Origin: Escherichia coli
GTDB lineage: Bacteria; Pseudomonadota; Gammaproteobacteria; Enterobacterales; Enterobacteriaceae
Strand: one strand, 5' to 3'
Assembly (NCBI RefSeq): GCF_046105845.1
Contig: NZ_CP151004.1
DNA length: 64,000 bases
The notes beneath the pieces were generated by a model. The model searched no databases and was not told the DNA's origin. It saw nothing but the letters and a program-made list of their open reading frames with translations. The stretch's first letter is position 1. Every line of letters starts with the position of its first letter. Shown piece by piece: positions 5,410-17,743 of the stretch. The position numbers were made by a program, and so were the translations under genes.

Positions 5410-6521
5410 TTGCGTGGGCTAACTTTAAGTAATTCCCCACTGGACTCGTCGGTGAGAACGTATAAATAACCGTCGGGTCCAGTGCGAACATCACGAATTC
5501 GCTGCCCTCTGTCCGTTAAAATACGGCCATCTTCTGTCACTTCGTCGCCGTTGACGCTCATCACAATGACATCTTTATCTTTCAGCGCGCCAATAAATAA
5601 TTTTTGCTGCCACTGGGGGAATTTATCGCTGTTATAGAAGGCCATACCGCTCACGGCGGGCGAATCTTTCCAGTAAAAAACAGGTTGCTCGGTCCCGGCG
5701 ACGATCTCCCCTTTCGCTTCCGGTATCTTAAAGCCTGAATAGTTGATTCCCCAGGTTGCCAGCGGCCAGCCGTAGTTTTTGCCTTTTTGCGGGATATTAA
5801 TTTCATCGCCACCGCGCGGGCCATGTTCATTCAGCCATAGTGCATTACTCCACGGATTCATCGCCATTCCTTGCGGATTACGAATGCCATAAGACCAGAT
5901 CTCGGCGCGCGCACCGGATTCCTTTATAAAAGGATTATCATCCGGGATTTCGCCCTGGTCGGTCAGACGCACCAGTTTGCCCTGTAATTTATCCAGATCC
6001 TGCGCCGTCGGGCGCTGATTGTTTTCGCCCAGAGCAATAAAAAGATAACCTTTACCGTCGAATACCAGCCGCCCGCCAAAATGGTTGCCGGTAGACAGTT
6101 TTGGCATCTGGCGAAAGACGGTGCGGAAGTCGGTCACTTTTGAGAGATCATCACTTAAGCGGCCATAACCCACAGCAGTTCCGGCTTTGCCATCATCGCC
6201 AACTTCGGAATAACTTAACCAGATGCGGCTCGACTGAGCAAAATCAGGCGCTAAAACCACGTCCAGCAGACCGCCCTGCCCGTGCGCCCAAACGTCCGGC
6301 ACTCCGGAAAGCGGCGCAGATAATCCTTTTCCTGCTTGCCAGTGACGCAACTCGCCGCCGCGCAGAGTGATTAACATACCGTGATTATCGGGTAAAAAGG
6401 CCAGCGCCCAGGGATGGTCGAGTTTGTCTTGCAGTACTTCGACATTTACCGTTGCAGGAGCCGCCCAGAGAGCGGAAGAAAGACAAATAAGGGGCACAGA
6501 GAAAAAGAATTGTCGATGCAT
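5406..6521 (-). CDS. yliI: Soluble aldose sugar dehydrogenase YliI (PQQ-dependent), 371 aa
   Basis: Full ORF with signal peptide; recognised YliI sequence; 4-bp convergent overlap with gstB. Confidence 0.9.
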
Positions 6522-6601
6522 AACGCCTCCGGATTGACTCTGGCTTAAAGCGTAGTCAGTGGAGGAGATAACAAATTCATTTTTACAAAAACTTAAACAT
6601 G

Positions 6602-6626
6602 AAGGGGGAGACGCTTTCTCCCCCTT
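6602..6626. other. 10-bp perfect inverted repeat (AAGGGGGAGA/TCTCCCCCTT) between bssR and yliI
   Basis: Read directly from sequence; terminator-like stem-loop. Confidence 0.4.
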
Positions 6627-6631
6627 AGTTT

Positions 6632-7015
6632 TCAGGCCTTCTCAAGCATGGTGTGCTTCTGCAGGCTCTGGATACTCAGCGTTAAGCTCATCAGACAATT
6701 TTCAAGCTTATCGGCGTTGACGGTAATAACAGTCGGGCAATCATGGTGCCCACTCATCAAACATACTGCGGCTGTCGCTAATGCTTCTTCAGCATGATGA
6801 AGAGCACTCCACTCTTCCTGATCCAGATGAAGATTCAACCGCAGCGATTTATCGTGCAGTTCGCGATTCAGTTTAAAAAAGTTATCTCGTAGATGATTGC
6901 TTTCGCTGACGGACATGTATCCTTTTGCCTTCCTCAGTTGCACGTATGCGGCGAGGTCAACGCGTGCGTCGATCAACCGGTTCAGCAGATCGATTCGCTG
7001 TCTGTCAACGAACAT
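6632..7015 (-). CDS. bssR: Biofilm regulator BssR (YliH), 127 aa
   Basis: ORF 6632..7048; start at internal Met (MFVDRQRIDLL...) matching BssR. Confidence 0.88.
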   Translation of the reverse strand: MFVDRQRIDLLNRLIDARVDLAAYVQLRKAKGYMSVSESNHLRDNFFKLNRELHDKSLRLNLHLDQEEWSALHHAEEALATAAVCLMSGHHDCPTVITVNADKLENCLMSLTLSIQSLQKHTMLEKA

Positions 7016-7227
7016 ACTTCGATCCTCCTCTTTCCAGCCTTGTTGCAATTAAATAGTATGGCTATTTTTTGAGCAAAATGCTGTCCAGGATCAATTCTTC
7101 ACGCCGAATTAACAAAATTTACATTTCCTTCGCCTCCGCCAGCGAATGAGATTGCGATACAAATTTTATCCAGAACTCTGTAGAATCCCTGCCCTGACCT
7201 TTCCTGTAACTGAATATTTTTTAAGCT

Positions 7228-8553
7228 ATGAGCAAAGTAACTCCCCAGCCGAAAATCGGCTTTGTTTCCCTTGGCTGCCCGAAAAACCTTGTCGATTCAG
7301 AGCGTATTCTCACCGAACTACGCACTGAAGGTTATGACGTGGTACCGAGCTATGACGATGCGGACATGGTGATCGTCAACACCTGCGGCTTTATTGACAG
7401 CGCGGTACAAGAATCACTGGAAGCCATTGGTGAAGCGTTGAATGAAAACGGCAAGGTAATTGTGACCGGTTGTCTGGGGGCAAAAGAAGATCAGATCCGC
7501 GAAATCCACCCGAAAGTGCTGGAAATCACCGGGCCTCATAGCTATGAGCAGGTTCTGGAGCACGTTCATCACTACGTGCCAAAACCGAAACACAACCCAT
7601 TCCTGAGCCTGGTGCCAGAACAAGGCGTGAAACTGACGCCGCGTCATTATGCCTATCTGAAAATTTCTGAAGGTTGTAATCACCGCTGCACCTTCTGCAT
7701 TATTCCGTCTATGCGCGGCGACCTGGTGAGCCGTCCGATTGGCGAAGTGTTAAGTGAAGCGAAACGTCTGGTTGATGCGGGCGTTAAAGAGATTCTGGTG
7801 ATCTCGCAGGATACTTCCGCCTATGGCGTCGATGTTAAACATCGTACTGGCTTCCACAACGGCGAGCCGGTAAAAACCAGCATGGTCAGCCTGTGCGAAC
7901 AGTTATCGAAACTGGGGATCTGGACACGTCTGCACTACGTTTACCCTTATCCGCATGTGGACGACGTCATCCCACTGATGGCAGAAGGCAAAATCCTGCC
8001 CTATCTGGACATTCCGTTGCAGCACGCCAGCCCGCGCATTCTCAAACTGATGAAGCGTCCGGGTTCTGTAGATCGCCAACTCGCGCGCATCAAACAGTGG
8101 CGCGAAATCTGCCCGGAACTGACCCTACGCTCAACCTTTATTGTCGGCTTCCCTGGCGAGACAGAAGAAGATTTCCAGATGCTACTCGACTTCCTGAAAG
8201 AAGCGCGTCTGGATCGCGTTGGCTGCTTTAAATACAGCCCGGTTGAAGGTGCAGACGCCAATGCCCTGCCTGACCAGGTTCCGGAAGAAGTGAAAGAAGA
8301 ACGCTGGAACCGTTTCATGCAGCTGCAGCAGCAGATTTCCGCCGAGCGCCTGCAAGCGAAAGTGGGCCGTGAAATTCTGGTGATTATCGACGAAGTGGAC
8401 GAAGAAGGCGCGATTGGTCGCAGCATGGCAGATGCACCGGAAATCGACGGTGCGGTTTATCTCAATGGTGAAACCAACGTTAAGCCGGGTGATATCCTGC
8501 GTGTGAAAGTCGAGCACGCCGATGAGTACGATTTGTGGGGTAGCCGGGTTTAA
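7228..8553 (+). CDS. rimO: Ribosomal protein S12 methylthiotransferase RimO (radical SAM), 441 aa
   Basis: Full ORF; radical SAM CxxxCxxC motif (CNHRCTFC); recognised RimO. Confidence 0.93.
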
Positions 8554-8599
8554 TTAATTCAGGCCGGGCAAAATCATTTGTCCGGCCTGCGAATAATGA

Positions 8600-9928
8600 T
8601 TACTGCCAGCTAATCTGCGCCCTGCCGTTTTTCTTACTCTTATACAGTCGCTCATCCGCCAGCATTTTCAAGCGTTCGACGGTAGTACATTCATTTGAAT
8701 GCGCTACACCGATACTGGTGCTTAAATTAATGCTTCCCACCTGGAAATGAACAATTTCTTTTAGAATCGATAGCAACTCTTCCAGCGTTCCACCCGTATA
8801 AATCACCGCAAATTCGTCACCGCCGAAGCGGTAGACTTTACCTTTATCTACCGGGATCTGTGATTTAAGGATTTTCACCACTTTCATCAACACTTCATCG
8901 CCCAGCAAATGACCGAAGGTGTCGTTAATGTTTTTGAATTTATCGACGTCAAACAGGCACAAATAACCGCCTTTTTCCGGCAGCGCTTTTAAATCTTCGT
9001 CAAAGGATTTTCTGCCCATTGCTTTGGTCAGGTCATCCAGGAACGCCGAGTTATACAGACTGTAGAGTTTTTTGACATCGGCAGCCGAAAAGAAAAGCCC
9101 GCCATCCAGTACGCGTTCAAAATGGTTATTAATGATGGCTTCTTTCTCCACAATACCACGATTAATCACTCTGCGTACCAGATAGAGGCAACTGACACCC
9201 GAAATCACTGCCACCAATGCGGCAAAGAAAATAATCAATGTACAGACCCGCAAATAAACATCTTTTTTATACGCAAATACGTACAATCCGGTCGGCAAAT
9301 AGGCGAAGTGCTCCATCGCTTCCGAAACGGTGAAGATGGCGTTTTTAGCATTAAATTCATCACCGGTCACCGGTTTACCGTTCTTAAACAGAGAGAACAT
9401 CAGGTTCTCGCTATCCATCGCCAGCGATTTTGACAGTAAAGAAAAACGCTCCAGACCAAGCAAAAATATCAGACTACGATTATGAGTTACCGGATAGAGG
9501 TAATAGACGAAGGTTTTACCGTCAAAAGAGATAAACCCTGTATTTTTGACATGTCGATACTTCACAATCTGCATAATATCTGCACAATAATTTTTCTCGA
9601 ACTCCTTTACCTGAATACATTCGTCACTGGAAATCAGATAAGGACCGACATCGTACAAATAAGAGGGTGAAACCGAGTCGGCGTAAGCTGTGCGTAAGCC
9701 AACCAACAGCTGTTCCTCCGTGGGATTTAGCGTGTTGATAAGATCAATTGCCACGCTACGCCGATATTCAGCAATATTTGCCACCGCAAAAGCAGTATCA
9801 ATAACGGACTGTTTCAGGCCATACACCCGTTCCTTTACCATTTGAGTGTAGATCCCGCAGGCAACTGCTGAAATCATGATAAAAATCAGCAGACTGACTG
9901 TAAGTACGAACTTATTGATTCTGGACAT
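8600..9928 (-). CDS. dgcI: Membrane-anchored GGDEF-domain protein DgcI (YliF), 442 aa
   Basis: Full ORF; N-terminal TM plus C-terminal GGDEF-type domain (RFGGDEF); conserved position. Confidence 0.9.
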
Positions 9929-9935
9929 ACGTAAA

Positions 9936-12284
9936 CTACTCTTTTACTAATTTTCCACTTTTATCCCAGGCGGAGAACGGCATGGGTTTCTGGTACAGAT
10001 ACCCCTGAGCCTGAACACATCCTAATTTGATTAATTCGCGCGCAACGTCTTCGCTCTCTACGCCTTCCGCAATCACCGGGATCCGGTTATAGCGTGCCAG
10101 ATCGAAAATAATGCGCACAATTTTTCCCGCAGTACCGAAAATATCGCCGGTAAATTGTGAGTCCACCTTTATGCTATCTGGATTAATTTCATAAAAACGT
10201 TTCAGGTTTGACAAACCGGTGCCAAAGTCATCAATCGATATCCGTACCCCTTGTTTACGCAGTTGTTCAATATTGAGATAAAAATGTTCATTAATTCGCT
10301 CGATCACGGTTTCAGTGATCTCAACACAGAGGCTGTTCGCCTTCAGGCCATTTTCTTCCATGATGGTGGTAAAACGCTCATGAAAGTGTGGTTCGTTTAA
10401 CTCCCAGGGCGAAACATTAATATGCAGTAAGAAATCATCCTTCAGCGACGCACGCTGACTAAAATGTCTGAATTCACCCATTGCCGTTTTAATAATCTGA
10501 TAACCCAGCTCATTGATAAACCCGATATCTTCAGCAATGGTAATGAACTTTAGCGGTGAAATGATCCCCCGCTCCGCAGACACCCAACGGCACAACGCCT
10601 CCGCGCCCAGAATGGTGCGGGTGTTAATATCAACGATCGGTTGATAGACGAGGAATAGTTCGCCAATTTCCATTGCATGGCGAATATTACGCGCAATCCA
10701 GATATTCTCTTCTATTTCGTTGAGTTTCGCGTCATCACAGAAAATAAACTCGGAGAACATATGGTCACGGATACTGGAAATCGCCAGTTTCAGTTTTTCT
10801 GCGTAACTCCAGGCGTTTTCCCCCTGCAAAGGTTCACAAATGGCAGACTTATGGATGCGCAGATTGCGGTAGCCAAAGCTGCTGTCAAAATCGTTTATCA
10901 TCGCTATTTTACGGGTAAATGTCTGTACATTTTCCCGGCACAGAAGTAAATAGAGATCGGCATTGAATGTCACGATATCGCAGCATTGCGCATATTTCTC
11001 GGCAATTCGCTGACACAATTTCCTGACGATTTTATTGCGTTCATCAACACCAAACACCGCTTCCACGGCTTCCAGACCACACAGTTTGATGATCCCCACA
11101 GCCAGATACTGATTATTGTTAGACTCAATAATCGCCATATTTTTAATAAAACCGCTTTCCTGATCGTAAGAGATCAGTGAGAGCAATTTATTTGACCGTT
11201 CAATTTCGGCATCTTTCATTTCCGCGATCGAATTTTTGATGCTGATAATCTCTTTCGCATCGCCTTCGCGAATTTTCAGAGCCTCGATCTGATCCGTTGA
11301 GTCGGGCAAAAACGCCAGCGTATTAACCAGCTCGGTCATTTCAGAAAATTGCCGACGGAACACACGAGTGGTCATTAAATAAACCACCAGCAATACGATA
11401 ATAATGAAAGCAAACGGCAGATAAAAAAGTTTATCTGATGCGTTCAATAAATTACCACCAGGATAATAAAAATAGATTTCGAATAATGCGTTGTTTGGCA
11501 CCGCTGAAGTTTTTTCGATATATTCAGTATCGACAGAATCAATAATATTATAATTACCTTCGCTATTATAAATAATTAGTTTTTCACGAGCGAGTTGATT
11601 CTTGGCAATGATCTCATGGCCTTGTTTCAAAAATAGAACTTCATCATTAGCGCTGATTTGATCAAGATACTCGTTCAGATATCGCCAGTTTAAATCGACA
11701 TGTATTTTATCCACCGCTAACAAATCGTGATCTTTGCCGTTGATGCGTAGCGTAAAAGAGATACATTTTTTACCCGGACGATCAAAGCAATTGTAGGCCG
11801 GATTCCAGCTGTTGTTAGAGTCATCTGAAGCCACCGACCATGGTCGTTTCGATGGATTAAAATCGGCAAAAATAACCCGCCCTGACTCGTCGACAAGCGG
11901 TCCATTTACTTCTTCCTGATGATAAACAACGATTTTATCATTCGCCCTCCGCGAAAAGAGATAATATTTATTATCATCAAGTACCAGTCCCACCGAGTCT
12001 AAAAATGGCATCATTTCCATTTTAAGGATCACAGCGCGTTGAATCTCCTCTGTATTTTTTAATAAATACAGTGAGTCCTTTAATGTCAGGGCCGAACGTT
12101 CAATATCTTTAAAGAAATAGCCAACGTTTTTCTGAATAAGTTCAAAGCGGCTATCGGCACGTTTTACCGCGCGTTCCAATACCAGTTGATAGTTAATGAT
12201 GAAAAAAAGGCCAATAAATGACAGTGCTGCCAATAAAAATAAAATTATCAGCCTTATCTTTATCTTTTCGTATAAACTCAGCAT
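9936..12284 (-). CDS. pdeI: c-di-GMP phosphodiesterase PdeI (YliE), EAL domain, 782 aa
   Basis: ORF 9936..12362; start at Met-27 (MLSLYEKIK...) matching YliE; C-terminal EAL-type domain. Confidence 0.9.
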
Positions 12285-12461
12285 GTTAATACATTTAACA
12301 AAATAACTGTCTGAACGCTGTGCCGCTGCAAAAACAGTCCCTTGCTGCGGCTTTTTAACCAAATTACCCGATTCTACAAAATCAGCAGAAAGTTACAACA
12401 CTTGCTTAGGGCAATAATTTCCTGTGAGGTGATTACCCTTTCAAGCAATATTCAAACGTAA

Positions 12462-13373
12462 CTATCCTTTAATTTTCGGATCCAGCGCATCGCGTAAACC
12501 ATCACCCAACAAATTGAACGCCAGTACAGTCAGAAAAATAGCCAGGGCCGGAAAAATAGCGACATGCGGCGCGATAACCATATCCGCTCGTGCCTCATTG
12601 AGCATTGCTCCCCACTCTGGTGTCGGCGGCTGCGCACCGAGGCCGAGAAATGACAGGCTGGCGGCAGAGATAATCGAGGTACCGATGCGCATGGTGAAAA
12701 ACACCACGATAGACGAGACAGTCCCGGGCAAGATATGGCGCAATAAGATGGTCATGTCGCTGGCACCAATACTGCGCGCCGATTCAATAAAAGTTTGCTG
12801 TTTCAACACCAGCGTGTTGCCGCGCACCAGTCGGGCAAACGCGGGGATGGAAAAAATGGCGACTGCAATAATCACGTTAGCAATGCCGCTTCCCAACACC
12901 GCAACAACAGCGATCGCCAGTAAAATACCCGGAAAGGCAAACAGCACATCGCAAATGCGCATGATCAGCCGATCCCACCAGCCTTCATAATATCCAGCCA
13001 GCAAACCCAGCAACGTCCCGATCGCCGCACCGATAAACACGGCAAACACACCCGCCGCCAGTGAGATTTGCGCACCAACCAGGACACGGCTGAAAATGTC
13101 ACGCCCCAGTGAATCAACGCCAAACCAGTGCTGCAAAGAAGGTCCGTTATTCAGATTGTCATAATCAAAATAATTTTCGGCGTCATAGGGAGCGATCCAG
13201 CGTGCAAAAATAGCCACCACAATCAATAAAATAACGAACAATGCGGCGGTCATCGCCATATGCTGACGGCGAAATCGTCGCCAGAATTCATGCCACGGTG
13301 TACGTACCTGGTCAGGTTTGACCAGTGGCATGGCGTTTAACACCGCCTGACGTCGCCAGTTAAATAGTCGCAT
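12462..13373 (-). CDS. gsiD: Glutathione ABC transporter permease GsiD, 303 aa
   Basis: Full ORF; polytopic ABC permease; gsiABCD operon context. Confidence 0.92.
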
Positions 13374-15852: not shown

Positions 15853-15871
15853 TTTATTCTCCGCCTGAATG

Positions 15872-17743
15872 TTATCTACGCATGAATGCGTATTCTGATT
15901 GTGGTTGTGCGACGTAATGCCCCGGCCCGACGCATTGCAACGAGACAGCTGCAACCTCTTCGCCACGCAGATGAATATTGCTGGGAAGATCGTCCGACAG
16001 CAGTACACGCTGCGGTCGTTGTCGGGACGGTTCCGCGACCGGAACCGCCGCCAGTAATTTACGCGTATAAGGATGCTGCGGGTTTTCGAAGACCGCGCGC
16101 CGTGGACCAATTTCAACAATTTGTCCGAGATACATCACCGCCACACGATGACTAATCCGCTCTACCACGGCCATATCGTGGGAGATAAACAGATACGCAA
16201 TGCCGAAATCACGCTGGAGATCGAGCAACAAGTTGATAATCTGCCCGCGAATAGAAACATCCAGCGCCGAGACGGCTTCATCGGCAATGATCACTTTTGG
16301 ATTCAATGCCAACGCGCGAGCAATGCAGATGCGCTGGCGCTGACCGCCGGAAAACTCATGCGGGTAACGCCAGGCATGTTCAGGTAACAGGCCCACGCGC
16401 TCCAGCAACCACGCAACGCGTGCAGCCGCTTCTTTACCTGGCAATAAACCGTGTACGCGCAGCGGTTCGATAATCGAATCACCGATGGTCTGACGTGGGT
16501 CCAGCGAAGCGTAAGGGTCCTGAAAAATAAACTGAATATCGCGGCGCAATGCCTGAAGTTTACCGGGTGACAAGGTATCGATTCGCTGACCGTTAAAGAT
16601 AATTTCGCCGCCCTGCGATTCGACCAGGCGCAGCAACGCCCGCCCGGTAGTGGATTTACCGCTGCCAGACTCGCCCACCAGCGATAGCGTTTCGCCAGGC
16701 CAGAGATCAAAACTGACTTTCTCAACGGCATGCACTTCCCGCGTTACGCGATTCAACAAACCGCTGCGCAAAGGGAAACGGGTGACCAGATTACGCACCC
16801 GTAAAACAGGTTCGCCATCCACCACCGTTTTCTGCTCGATGGGTGGTTCCTGTTTCGCTGGATGTTCAAGCGATATCAATGGGAAACGTCGGGGATAATC
16901 TAACCCTTTCATCGCACCAAGTTGCGGAACAGCAGCTAACAGCGCACGGGTGTAAGGATGTTGCGGTGCATGAAAAATCTGTTCGACGCTACCCGTTTCC
17001 ACCGCCTCGCCCTGATACATCACCAGTACCCGATCGGCAATCTCTGCCACCACGCCCATATCGTGAGTGATAAAGATAACGCCCATCGACATCTCTTTTT
17101 GCAATACTTTGATTAATTGCAGGATCTGCGCCTGAATAGTGACATCCAGCGCGGTGGTTGGCTCATCGGCAATCAGCACCGCCGGGCGGCATGACAGTGC
17201 CATCGCAATCATCACTCGCTGGCGCATCCCGCCAGAGAGTTGATGCGGATAACGTGAAAGAATGGTTTGTGCCTCCGGAATGCGTACCTGATCCAGCATC
17301 CGCTTCGCCTCGACCATTGCTTCTTCACGACTGGCGTTTTGATGCAGACGAATAGATTCAGCAATCTGTTCACCCACAGTAAATACCGGGTTCAGCGATG
17401 TCATCGGCTCCTGAAATATCATCGCCATATCCGCACCGCGCACATGGCGCATTTGTGCAGCGCTCTGCTCGCTAAGTTCAATCACTTCGCGACTGCGCCG
17501 CCGCAACAGCATTTGATCGCACTGCACTAAACCGCCCGCCTGTTCCAACAGGCGCATCAATGCCAGCGCAGTCACTGACTTACCGGAGCCGGATTCGCCA
17601 ACAATTGCCAGCGTCTCACCACGTTGCAGGCTAAAAGAGAGATTGCGGACCGCAGCTATTTTCTGCTGGTCCTGCATAAAGGCAATATTCAGATTTTCAA
17701 CCGCCAGCACATCACCGGCATCAAGTTCATCACTGTGTGGCAA
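15872..17743 (-). CDS. gsiA: Glutathione ABC transporter ATPase GsiA (two nucleotide-binding domains), 623 aa
   Basis: ORF 15872..17851; conserved N-terminus (PHSDELDAG...) is preceded by a TTG codon at 17741-17743, inferred non-ATG start; two Walker A motifs (GESGSGKS). Confidence 0.88.

Follow-up and report, generated by a model that had tools for sequence, protein, structure and literature searches.

The chromosomal pdeI-dgcI pair of Escherichia coli: predicted opposing c-di-GMP enzymes and a degenerate GGDEF-like domain in PdeI

Introduction

Two adjacent genes of Escherichia coli encode a membrane-bound GGDEF protein and a large EAL protein, raising the question of whether the pair makes and degrades c-di-GMP, and of whether the protein named as a phosphodiesterase might itself be a cyclase. 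The genes lie in a stretch of 64,000 nucleotides of E. coli DNA (the window), for which an earlier note, made from the sequence alone, had proposed the names dgcI and pdeI. The literature conflicts on PdeI, which has been reported both to lower and to raise c-di-GMP. We examined the locus, the domains of the two proteins, their conservation and their relationship to known systems.

The locus

The locus corresponds to pdeI-dgcI (yliE-yliF) on the E. coli chromosome, and both genes are intact and ordinary. Its features in the window are as follows.

9936..12284, minus strand: pdeI (yliE) coding sequence, 782 aa, inner-membrane c-di-GMP phosphodiesterase-type protein (ORF, K-12 identity, Pfam, RefSeq)
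8600..9928, minus strand: dgcI (yliF) coding sequence, 442 aa, inner-membrane diguanylate cyclase (ORF, K-12 identity, Pfam, RefSeq)
9929..9935, minus strand: 7-nt gap from the pdeI stop codon to the dgcI ATG, sequence ...AAAGAGTAGTTTACGTATG...
7228-8553, plus strand: rimO, between bssR and dgcI
6632-7015, minus strand: bssR, not an immediate neighbour of dgcI
8560..8589, no strand assigned: GC-rich hairpin with 13-nt arms and a 4-nt loop in the dgcI/rimO gap (inverted repeat I1)
12285..12461, minus strand: gsiD-pdeI intergenic region, 177 bp, AT-rich (38% GC)
12398..12371, minus strand: candidate sigma-70 promoter TTGTAA-16-TAGAAT (promoter scan, 9/12 match)

The proposed gene names proved correct. 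The proteins are 99% identical to PdeI (YliE, b0833) and DgcI (YliF, b0834) of K-12, with the same lengths and the same 7-nt spacing, and RefSeq names the matching DNA dgcI and pdeI. PdeI matches b0833 at 775 of 782 residues and DgcI matches b0834 at 436 of 442; none of the seven and six substitutions, respectively, falls at a catalytic or motif position. The pdeI start is the ATG that gives 782 aa; although the mechanical ORF reaches back to a TTG at 12362, the annotation does not start there. Both genes are already known and named, belong to the E. coli core and have the domains expected of them; nothing is new here beyond a few corrections to the earlier description.

One such correction concerns the layout, which the earlier note gave as back to back and next to bssR. 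The genes are indeed consecutive but not opposed, both being on the minus strand with pdeI upstream; bssR is nearby, but rimO intervenes before dgcI. The order gsiD-pdeI-dgcI-rimO(-)-bssR is identical in K-12, an O158:H23 strain and E. fergusonii; the K-12 pair has the same neighbours, gsiD upstream and a convergent rimO downstream.

Because the two genes share a strand, with pdeI first and only 7 nt from its stop codon to the dgcI ATG, they probably form an operon, with co-transcription likely to start from the gsiD-pdeI spacer. A promoter scan of this region returned no more matches than expected from shuffled sequence, and TTGTAA-16-TAGAAT is therefore a candidate only. Inspection of the sequence upstream of either ATG found no good Shine-Dalgarno sequence; the sole purine-rich run before the dgcI ATG, AAAGAG, ends 10 nt upstream of it, and translation of the two genes may be coupled across the short gap. 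At the other end, dgcI and rimO converge on a 46-bp gap containing the hairpin, which has a folding energy of -20.3 kcal/mol on the minus strand and -25.2 on the plus strand (z -4.5 and -5.0; no shuffle folded as well). The hairpin has no canonical U-tract and a terminator scan gave no call at this site; it is probably a transcription stop common to dgcI and rimO.

DgcI has a complete diguanylate cyclase active site

DgcI has the architecture TM-GAPES2-TM-GGDEF.

9242..9853, minus strand: periplasmic GAPES2 domain, residues 26-229 (Pfam GAPES2, E 4e-142)
8618..9046, minus strand: GGDEF catalytic domain, residues 295-437, with RFGGDEF at 8810-8830 (Pfam GGDEF)

The membrane topology that had been read from the sequence is supported in both proteins, since two hydropathy peaks flank a periplasmic domain in each (residues ~3-32 and ~222-255 in DgcI, ~6-37 and ~282-311 in PdeI). 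The same is true of the GGDEF and EAL assignments, for which alignment to profiles had been named beforehand as the test and gave scores far beyond chance: 89.3 bits for DgcI against Pfam PF00990 GGDEF (E 3e-25; cut-off 23.8), 91.9 bits against TIGR00254 (cut-off 37.4), and 231.7 bits for PdeI against Pfam PF00563 EAL (E 1e-68; cut-off 31.3). In an alignment of five GAPES2-GGDEF proteins (39-77% identity) the periplasmic ANxxEYRR motif is invariant and the Cys pair C104/C115 is kept.

The GGDEF domain of DgcI aligns to the structures of DgcZ, DosC, PleD and WspR. The RFGGDEF motif noticed earlier is present at residues 367-373, and alignment to DgcZ, DosC and PleD shows that the metal-, guanine- and phosphate-binding residues and the GG(D/E)EF motif are all in place. 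Invariant in five DgcI family members are D327, D329, K332, N335, D336, H340, D344, R367, GGDEF 369-373, K432 and R436. An RxxD I-site is typical of the GGDEF family and is not required for catalysis. In DgcI it is absent, the position five residues upstream of GGDEF reading VDKG; therefore no I-site product inhibition is predicted. A published survey likewise lists the yliF A-site as KNDHDRGGDEF and its I-site as non-consensus (Spurbeck 2012 Table 1).

Whether this domain is intact had been posed as an open question. All of the A-site residues are intact, and the question had largely been answered by published in vivo work, because the K-12 and Shigella alleles have been shown to make c-di-GMP. 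K-12 DgcI raises a c-di-GMP reporter in vivo and D371A abolishes the effect (PMC11757272), while S. flexneri DgcI gave the highest c-di-GMP among four cyclases by LC-MS/MS, abolished by GG->AA (PMC11327459). We found no in vitro enzymology on DgcI in the literature. Taken together, the sequence and the published in vivo data support the reading of DgcI as a diguanylate cyclase with a complete active site.

PdeI combines a periplasmic sensor with a complete EAL domain

PdeI is arranged as TM1, a dCache-like sensor (CHASE9), TM2, a conserved helix, a degenerate GGDEF-like domain and EAL. The earlier description of a periplasmic sensor plus EAL was right on both parts but missed the degenerate domain between TM2 and EAL.

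11421..12185, minus strand: periplasmic sensor, dCache-like fold, residues 34-288 (Pfam, AF2 model, Foldseek)
11835-12176, minus strand: CHASE9, first half of the sensor, residues 37-150 (Pfam E 7e-62)
11109..11264, minus strand: residues 341-392, the most conserved stretch (ortholog column conservation)
10725..11132, minus strand: degenerate GGDEF-like domain, residues ~385-520, including G412 (BLASTP, NCBIfam, hhalign)
9984..10691, minus strand: EAL domain, residues 532-767, with the EAL motif at 10593-10601 (Pfam EAL)

An AF2 model of the sensor (pLDDT 70.7, pTM 0.68; pLDDT <50 around RPW) has a long helix at its N-terminus and then two alpha/beta (PAS-like) modules. Every one of the best ~40 Foldseek matches in the PDB is a dCache or tandem-PAS sensor domain; the lowest E is 4.6e-5, and 19 matches have E<=0.001. 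With TM-scores of 0.4-0.5, and with both model quality and similarity moderate, the fold class could be assigned as dCache-like. The predicted fold of residues 34-288 is that of the dCache sensors TlpC, Mlp24/Mlp37, KinD and the Aeromonas diguanylate cyclase sensor 7k5n, and the R-P-W of PdeI (R147-W149) stands where Cache domains have RPWY; PdeI differs from these sensors in sequence (8-14% identity) and in having no Pfam dCache_1 match, CHASE9 alone being found in its sensor. Its plasmid-borne paralogue (38% identical) reaches 29.3 bits against dCache_1, under the cut-off of 45. Comparison with the dCache sensors yielded no assignable ligand-binding motif in the PdeI sensor, and the periplasmic domains of PdeI and DgcI presumably bind ligands.

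The PdeI sensor also carries a conserved Cys pair, C166/C174, found in the distant relatives P0167 and P0177. Periplasmic Cys pairs raised the possibility of a disulfide-controlled phosphodiesterase of the CSS-domain type, which we rejected: the periplasmic regions of PdeI and DgcI gave no match to the Pfam CSS-motif domain, and the Cys pairs alone are conserved. A redox role for C166/C174 of PdeI and C104/C115 of DgcI is speculation. Similarly, the HAMP linker attributed to YliE in a preprint (10.1101/2025.05.09.653004) is unsupported, as there is no Pfam match between TM2 and the output domains; residues 306-536 gave none to HAMP even at E<=10.

The EAL domain is complete. Read from alignments to the solved EAL domains 5yrp and 2r6o (both active) and 5m3c, the conserved residues are E562-A-L-x-R566, N623, E655/E658, D685-D686-FGTG, K706, E740 and Q760, and yliE has been listed as full consensus, EALR/QRDD/TE/ENEEDKEQ (Spurbeck 2012). 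With its catalytic set whole, the domain is predicted to hydrolyse c-di-GMP. Our literature search found no in vitro hydrolysis assay of PdeI.

A conserved helix and a degenerate GGDEF-like domain in PdeI

The strongest constraint in PdeI lies outside the EAL domain. Among four Escherichia orthologues, 92% of columns are invariant at residues 341-392 versus 59-68% in the sensor, mid and EAL domains; this stretch is 96% identical to E. fergusonii, and the whole protein 69%. Presumably a signalling helix here leads into the degenerate GGDEF-like domain, which opens with YDQESGFxxN.

Several comparisons place this mid-domain in the register of GGDEF. By BLASTP it aligns in register to the GGDEF domain of the GGDEF-EAL protein P0012, and the NCBIfam GepA and DosP models are colinear with PdeI from residue 377/388. 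In hhalign it matches GGDEF in the same register with E 0.013, at a score of 19.5 versus a maximum of 18.9 over 30 column shuffles. A low-confidence AF2 model built from orthologues only (pLDDT 41) has an order of secondary structure that fits beta-alpha-alpha-beta-beta-alpha, and GGDEF domains are frequent among its top 50 Foldseek matches, all with E >= 0.13 (not significant). Pfam returned no GGDEF match to the mid-domain at E<=10, and no canonical GGDEF protein came up in an HMMER search of 1.84 billion proteins. These comparisons weakly support homology of residues ~385-520 to GGDEF, in keeping with the literature, where the mid-domain has been called divergent GGDEF or xGGDEF (eLife 2024; 10.1101/2025.05.09.653004).

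In the BLASTP alignment every cyclase position is replaced: DxD by K400/C402, FK by L404/E405, N by E408 and GD by R416/N417. The place of RxGGDEF is taken by T439-F-N-A-D-L-Y445 in the alignment to P0012, with FNADLY at 10950-10967 of the window. Moreover, the equivalent motif drifts among PdeI orthologues and paralogues (FNADL, FNSNT, LSADL, LSSDL, LSPYK, ISDKR, NKNKY). The sequence thus argues that PdeI itself would be unable to synthesise c-di-GMP.

Distribution, composition and selection

All but one of 5426 complete E. coli genomes carry the locus. At the DNA level the allele in the window belongs to a minority lineage, its best complete genome being 99.5% identical and only 212 of the 5425 reaching at least 99%. 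Homologue searches found full-length orthologues of the pair in Escherichia only. The pair forms an AT-rich insert between gsiD and rimO, with a GC content of 41.5% for pdeI and 43.4% for dgcI versus 52-54% for rimO, gsiC and gsiD. The earlier term native module thus holds for its occurrence throughout E. coli and its shared synteny with E. fergusonii, but the pair is an Escherichia-restricted insert. Truncated dgcI variants are common in databases.

Against K-12, dN/dS is 0.07 for pdeI and 0.11 for dgcI, values based on few substitutions; dS against E. fergusonii is saturated (>2), and therefore the K-12 comparison alone informs dN/dS. Both genes are under purifying selection. Both have also been reported to be up-regulated at 37 C in CFT073, and the AT-rich locus may be subject to H-NS-type silencing that is lifted at this temperature.

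Comparison with known systems

A parallel is provided by plasmid-borne YliE-like/YliF-like pairs, already reported beside horizontally transferred cellulose synthase clusters in a Romling-lab preprint (10.1101/2025.05.09.653004). They share with the chromosomal pair the domains (CHASE9...EAL and GAPES2-GGDEF), the gene order, the strand, a degenerate mid-domain and intact EAL and GGDEF motifs; they differ in sequence (38% and 40% identity) and in an 11-nt overlap of the ORFs, versus the 7-nt gap on the chromosome. The plasmid pairs lie directly upstream of bcsA-bcsB-bcsC on IncHI1B-type plasmids, whereas the chromosomal pair has no adjacent polysaccharide synthase.

The DosC-DosP (DgcO-PdeO) operon is likewise a two-gene unit of c-di-GMP cyclase and phosphodiesterase, and DosP is also a degenerate GGDEF-EAL protein, its NCBIfam model being colinear with PdeI residues 388-770. 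In DosC-DosP the cyclase gene leads and both products are haem-based gas sensors of the cytoplasm; in PdeI-DgcI, in contrast, the phosphodiesterase gene leads and both products sit in the membrane, each with a periplasmic sensor. In Caulobacter PdeA/CC3396, a GTP-activated GGDEF-EAL phosphodiesterase whose EAL domain is controlled by its non-catalytic GGDEF domain, and in the degenerate receptor LapD, as in PdeI, an inactive GGDEF-type domain abuts EAL on its N-terminal side after a signalling helix. The degenerate GGDEF domain of CC3396 still binds GTP. PdeI differs in that its guanine-binding positions are replaced too (E408, R416/N417), and GTP sensing is therefore unlikely. Unlike LapD, PdeI retains all catalytic residues in its EAL domain.

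Discussion

We favour, at a probability of about 0.85, the reading that pdeI and dgcI lie in the same direction, are probably transcribed together and encode inner-membrane sensor enzymes that act on c-di-GMP in opposite ways. A DgcI dimer, when its periplasmic domain allows, would make c-di-GMP from two GTP without I-site feedback, and the PdeI EAL domain would convert c-di-GMP to pGpG. The PdeI helix and degenerate domain may form a gate linking the sensor with the activity of the EAL domain.

It has been proposed that the pde name is wrong and that PdeI is a c-di-GMP synthase acting through a divergent GGDEF domain (eLife 2024). The proposal draws on a ~11-fold rise in c-di-GMP by HPLC-MS/MS on PdeI overexpression, on a positive correlation of PdeI-BFP level with a c-di-GMP sensor in single cells, and on loss of the increase with G412S in the mid-domain (eLife 2024). 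We give it very little credence, for each catalytic position is replaced in register with a real GGDEF domain, the GGDEF-equivalent motif varies even inside Escherichia and in paralogues, and Pfam finds no GGDEF match. Moreover, pdeI overexpression blocks c-di-GMP-dependent infection by phage N4, as do five other phosphodiesterases, and pdeI suppressor mutations restore motility in a pdeH mutant. The G412S allele, as cited within eLife 2024, lowers c-di-GMP in the pdeH background, which fits an activated phosphodiesterase equally well. PdeI could instead be mainly a regulator that raises c-di-GMP indirectly in some conditions, such as in surface-attached cells; it would activate DgcI or another cyclase, or titrate another phosphodiesterase, making contact by way of the hyper-conserved helix and the degenerate GGDEF region. 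This would reconcile the c-di-GMP rise with the missing cyclase residues and suits the concentration of constraint at the helix/hinge. The plasmid pair keeps the order and tight spacing despite its divergence, which suggests that both proteins act together, and catalysis-independent phenotypes of S. flexneri DgcI suggest protein-protein signalling (PMC11327459). We nevertheless consider a mainly regulatory PdeI unlikely: its EAL catalytic residues, often lost in trigger-only proteins, are fully conserved and constrained; net phosphodiesterase behaviour is seen in the N4 and motility assays; and DgcI is barely expressed in K-12. In a published two-hybrid screen DgcI was toxic, and PdeI is not mentioned in the main text of that paper.

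A different view sees the pair as an insert acquired long ago and now largely silenced, a cryptic module under weak selection that mostly contributes little. The low GC content, the restriction of full-length orthologues to Escherichia, the lack of a good Shine-Dalgarno sequence at either ATG and the truncated dgcI variants would all suit such a history, as would reports that in K-12 under standard conditions DgcI protein is undetectable and expression of its gene very low or absent. We regard it as distinctly unlikely, since both frames are intact in a locus that nearly every complete genome carries, dN/dS is low, all catalytic residues are kept out to E. fergusonii and the plasmid paralogues, and both genes are induced at 37 C. 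Phenotypes have also been described: pdeI marks a subpopulation of surface-attached cells in biofilm (eLife 2024), yliF deletion alters adherence in CFT073 (Spurbeck 2012), and dgcI influences Shigella biofilm formation and virulence-related phenotypes (PMC11327459 and further literature).

The pair might also act as a two-protein local signalling unit, in which PdeI, by way of its helix and degenerate GGDEF domain, would directly control DgcI and direct its product to a c-di-GMP-dependent exopolysaccharide synthase. Such a synthase is suggested as the target because paralogous pairs sit directly upstream of bcsABC on plasmids, and redox control through the conserved Cys pairs of the two sensors might come on top. 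We view this as quite improbable; if true, it would explain the rise in c-di-GMP on PdeI overexpression despite the missing cyclase residues.

The importance of the locus is limited overall: both genes have names and belong to the E. coli core, and the earlier note did not present them as novel. The GGDEF question is already largely answered in the literature. For PdeI, the sequence of the degenerate GGDEF-like domain argues against the published claim that it is a c-di-GMP synthase. That paralogous pairs are linked to cellulose-synthase clusters on plasmids hints at the type of output that the chromosomal pair may serve.

Identity and arrangement of the pdeI-dgcI locus

An earlier note had read this region as an adjacent pair of c-di-GMP turnover genes, dgcI (GGDEF) and pdeI (EAL), sitting back to back beside the biofilm regulator bssR. 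The open reading frames, the Pfam domains and the identity to the K-12 proteins confirm both gene names and their positions. The features of the locus are as follows.

6632-7015, minus strand: bssR, separated from dgcI by rimO
7228-8553, plus strand: rimO, convergent with dgcI and lying between dgcI and bssR
8560-8589: GC-rich hairpin with 13-nt arms (dG -20 to -25 kcal/mol, z about -5)
8600-9928, minus strand: dgcI, a 442-aa open reading frame with 436/442 residues as in K-12 DgcI (b0834)
9584-9619: DgcI cysteine pair C104...C115 (Cx10C), kept in distant GAPES2 proteins
9936-12284, minus strand: pdeI, 782 aa from the ATG at 12284, N-terminus MLSLYEK, with 775/782 residues as in K-12 PdeI (b0833)
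11109-11264: PdeI residues 341-392 (a helix plus YDQESGFxxN), 92% invariant columns versus 59-68% elsewhere
11763-11789: PdeI cysteine pair C166...C174 (Cx7C), kept in distant PdeI-family relatives

The domain assignments were borne out by profile searches. DgcI comprises GAPES2 (residues 26-229, E 4e-142), flanked by hydropathy-predicted transmembrane segments at ~7-27 and ~227-250, and GGDEF (295-437; 89 bits, cut-off 23.8), while PdeI comprises CHASE9 (37-150, E 7e-62) and EAL (532-767; 232 bits, cut-off 31.3), with transmembrane segments at ~10-32 and ~288-305. Both genes lie on one strand with pdeI upstream and 7 nt from its stop to the start of dgcI, and so the description "back to back" holds in the sense of consecutive but not otherwise. 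The placement of bssR next to the pair needs correcting, as rimO intervenes before dgcI. The order gsiABCD-pdeI-dgcI-rimO(-)-bssR-yliI is common to K-12, one O158:H23 strain and E. fergusonii, and 5425 of 5426 complete E. coli genomes match the locus DNA, where the annotation is pdeI plus dgcI.

A TTG at 12362 was ruled out as the start of pdeI, as K-12, the RefSeq annotation and all orthologues begin MLSLYEK. The mechanical list of open reading frames over-extends three genes to upstream TTGs (12285-12362, 7016-7048 and 15853-16119), giving listed versus annotated lengths of 808/782 aa for pdeI, 138/127 for bssR and 601/512 for gsiB; these extensions are artefacts of first-start calling.

Composition, evolution and expression signals

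The GC content of pdeI (41.5%) and dgcI (43.4%) compares with 52-54% in rimO, gsiC and gsiD, and in 500-bp windows it dips to 0.37-0.45 over 8600-12461, against 0.50-0.56 in the flanking rimO and gsiCD. A word-indexed protein search returned full-length orthologues only from E. coli, E. albertii, E. marmotae and E. fergusonii. Together, the dip and this Escherichia-only distribution suggest that pdeI-dgcI is an old horizontally acquired insert, which is probably bound by H-NS. Relative to K-12, dN/dS is 0.07 for pdeI and 0.11 for dgcI; synonymous sites are saturated in the E. fergusonii comparison. Over window 8400-12500 (4.1 kb) the best complete E. coli genome is at most 99.5% identical and just 212 of 5425 are at 99% or higher, the nearest being O158:H23 CFIAFB20140388, KE55 and PCN033; judged by these identities, the allele belongs to a minority lineage.

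The hairpin at 8560-8589 occupies most of the 46-bp gap between dgcI and the convergent rimO. It probably ends transcription both ways, though it has a U-tract on neither strand and was not called by a terminator scan. The gsiD-pdeI spacer (12285-12461, 177 bp, 38% GC) contains one 9/12 sigma-70 match, a candidate promoter at 12398..12371, and no inverted repeats, and a promoter scan found sigma-70 matches there no commoner than in shuffled sequence. No Rfam family matched 6000-13000 at E<=1. Neither pdeI nor dgcI has a good Shine-Dalgarno sequence, which fits published work on K-12 in which dgcI expression is very low and DgcI protein undetected. In CFT073, both genes are up at 37 C.

DgcI retains a complete cyclase active site

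Whether the GGDEF domain, which reads RFGGDEF (residues 367-373, window 8810-8830), is catalytically intact had been raised as a question. Alignment to the solved cyclases DgcZ, DosC, PleD and WspR shows a complete active site (D327-V-D329-K-F-K332-N-I-N335-D336...H340...D344, R367-F-GGDEF(369-373) and K432...R436), its residues are invariant in comparison with four GAPES2-GGDEF relatives (39-77% identity), and the six substitutions relative to K-12 all fall outside motifs. In vivo, the signal of a c-di-GMP reporter goes up with K-12 DgcI but not with its D371A variant (PMC11757272), and among four cyclases compared by LC-MS/MS the S. flexneri DgcI produced the most c-di-GMP, an activity lost when GG was changed to AA (PMC11327459). 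The intact motifs here and the in-vivo activity elsewhere thus answer the question in the affirmative. The RxxD inhibitory site is absent, as Table 1 of Spurbeck et al. 2012 also indicates; its position reads VDKG.

Shortened DgcI variants are numerous in public data (protein clusters P0045, P0047, P0048 and P0051-P0061), for example 1305 sequences in a cluster of 399-aa proteins, besides forms 406-408 aa long, suggesting that truncation or deletion alleles of dgcI are frequent in natural E. coli and Shigella.

The periplasmic sensors

An AlphaFold2 model of PdeI residues 34-288, built from the sequences of four Escherichia orthologues, has pLDDT 70.7 and pTM 0.68. In a Foldseek search of the PDB, all 19 matches at E<=0.001 were double-Cache or tandem-PAS sensor domains, as were roughly the top 40 (chemoreceptors, kinases and one diguanylate cyclase). 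A plasmid-borne paralogue (38% identity), with RPWY where PdeI has RPWS, scores sub-threshold for Pfam dCache_1. From these structural matches and the signal in the paralogue, the PdeI sensor is predicted to be dCache-like; Pfam at E<=10 gave no Cache match in the C-terminal half of the periplasmic region.

The DgcI and PdeI periplasmic domains share no sequence similarity by BLASTP (best E 0.7), and the idea that they are paralogous copies reading one signal accordingly finds no support in sequence. Neither sensor matches the CSS domain, and the cysteine pairs may form disulfides that are structural or respond to redox state. The EAL proteins P0167 and P0177, which resemble PdeI distantly, carry the conserved helix, a degenerate mid-domain and a periplasmic WxxxYxCx7C, with no CHASE9 match in Pfam; they could add depth to alignments for structure prediction.

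PdeI carries a probable degenerate GGDEF domain and a conserved helix

The periplasmic sensor and EAL domain previously described for PdeI stand, but that description was silent on residues ~385-520, between TM2 and EAL. By BLASTP this mid-domain aligns in register with the GGDEF domain of a genuine GGDEF-EAL protein, the NCBIfam models for GepA and DosP, both GGDEF-EAL proteins, are colinear with PdeI from residue 377/388, and hhalign reproduces that register at E 0.013, scoring slightly higher than 30 controls with shuffled columns. Pfam at E<=10 found no GGDEF or HAMP match in residues 306-536. A HMMER profile run against 1.84 billion representatives gave 25 matches, mostly fragments of the same family, with two distant PdeI-like proteins among the yield and no canonical GGDEF protein. 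The AlphaFold2 model, built from orthologues only because real GGDEF sequences were deliberately excluded to avoid circularity, was unusable (pLDDT 41), and Foldseek returned nothing for it below E 0.1. Two papers term the region a divergent GGDEF domain (eLife 2024; the 2025 Romling preprint, 10.1101/2025.05.09.653004), and on these alignments homology to GGDEF is probable.

Every cyclase position in the mid-domain is replaced: K400/C402 (DxD), L404/E405 (FK), E408 (N), R416/N417 (GD) and T439-FNADLY (RxGGDEF). The GGDEF-equivalent motif drifts freely in relatives (FNADL, FNSNT, LSADL, LSSDL, LSPYK, ISDKR, NKNKY). The EAL consensus residues are all kept (E562-A-L-x-R566, N623, E655/E658, D685-D686-FGTG, K706, E740 and Q760). 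Across Escherichia, the highest conservation in the protein is found in residues 341-392, above the catalytic EAL domain; this segment is 96% identical to E. fergusonii, against 69% for full-length PdeI. Such conservation points to a role in signal transmission or contact.

Discussion

The earlier interpretation of the locus is supported apart from minor corrections, and its content is already known or incremental annotation detail. The activity of PdeI is disputed. Overexpression of pdeI confers resistance to phage N4, like that of five other phosphodiesterases, and pdeI suppressor mutations are reported to restore motility to a pdeH mutant; both support a phosphodiesterase role in vivo. A different label, synthase, was given by authors who saw c-di-GMP rise ~11-fold on PdeI overexpression, an effect abolished by G412S, a substitution in the mid-domain (eLife 2024). 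With every cyclase position lost, direct synthesis by PdeI is very unlikely, and G412S might just as well activate the phosphodiesterase, which would fit the lower c-di-GMP it is said, in a citation in that paper, to cause in a pdeH mutant. An indirect rise through a partner enzyme is a better candidate, though still an improbable one.

Related pairs occur outside the chromosome. A tblastn search of plasmid sequences turned up relatives of PdeI (38% identity) and DgcI (40%) encoded on E. coli plasmids of ~100-170 kb. On the IncHI1B plasmid pF719-2 (NZ_OY754394.1, 6395-22710) the paralogues are adjacent in the same order with an 11-nt overlap, have the Pfam architectures of chromosomal pdeI and dgcI, and immediately precede bcsA-bcsB-(IS3)-(group II intron RT)-bcsC, with IS26 nearby. 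By this association, pairs of this type are suggested to serve cellulose synthase; their link to cellulose synthase clusters was already made in the preprint from the Romling laboratory (2025). Separately, PLSDB records H16-H23 (e.g. NZ_CP134663.1, 4.9 Mb, and NZ_CP148400.1, 55 kb), some spanning 0.7-4.9 Mb, carry the chromosomal pdeI-dgcI at ~99% and look like chromosomal sequence, complete or in contigs, that was mislabelled as plasmid. That PdeI and DgcI form a partner-control unit feeding an exopolysaccharide synthase is a speculative extension, for which we would give odds of roughly one in ten.

Taking PdeI as a phosphodiesterase, the most likely scheme is that DgcI dimers make c-di-GMP under the control of GAPES2, without I-site feedback, and that the EAL domain of PdeI breaks it down under the control of the dCache-like sensor; the gate would be formed by the helix and the degenerate GGDEF domain. 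Both proteins would be co-expressed from a single AT-rich, thermoregulated unit.
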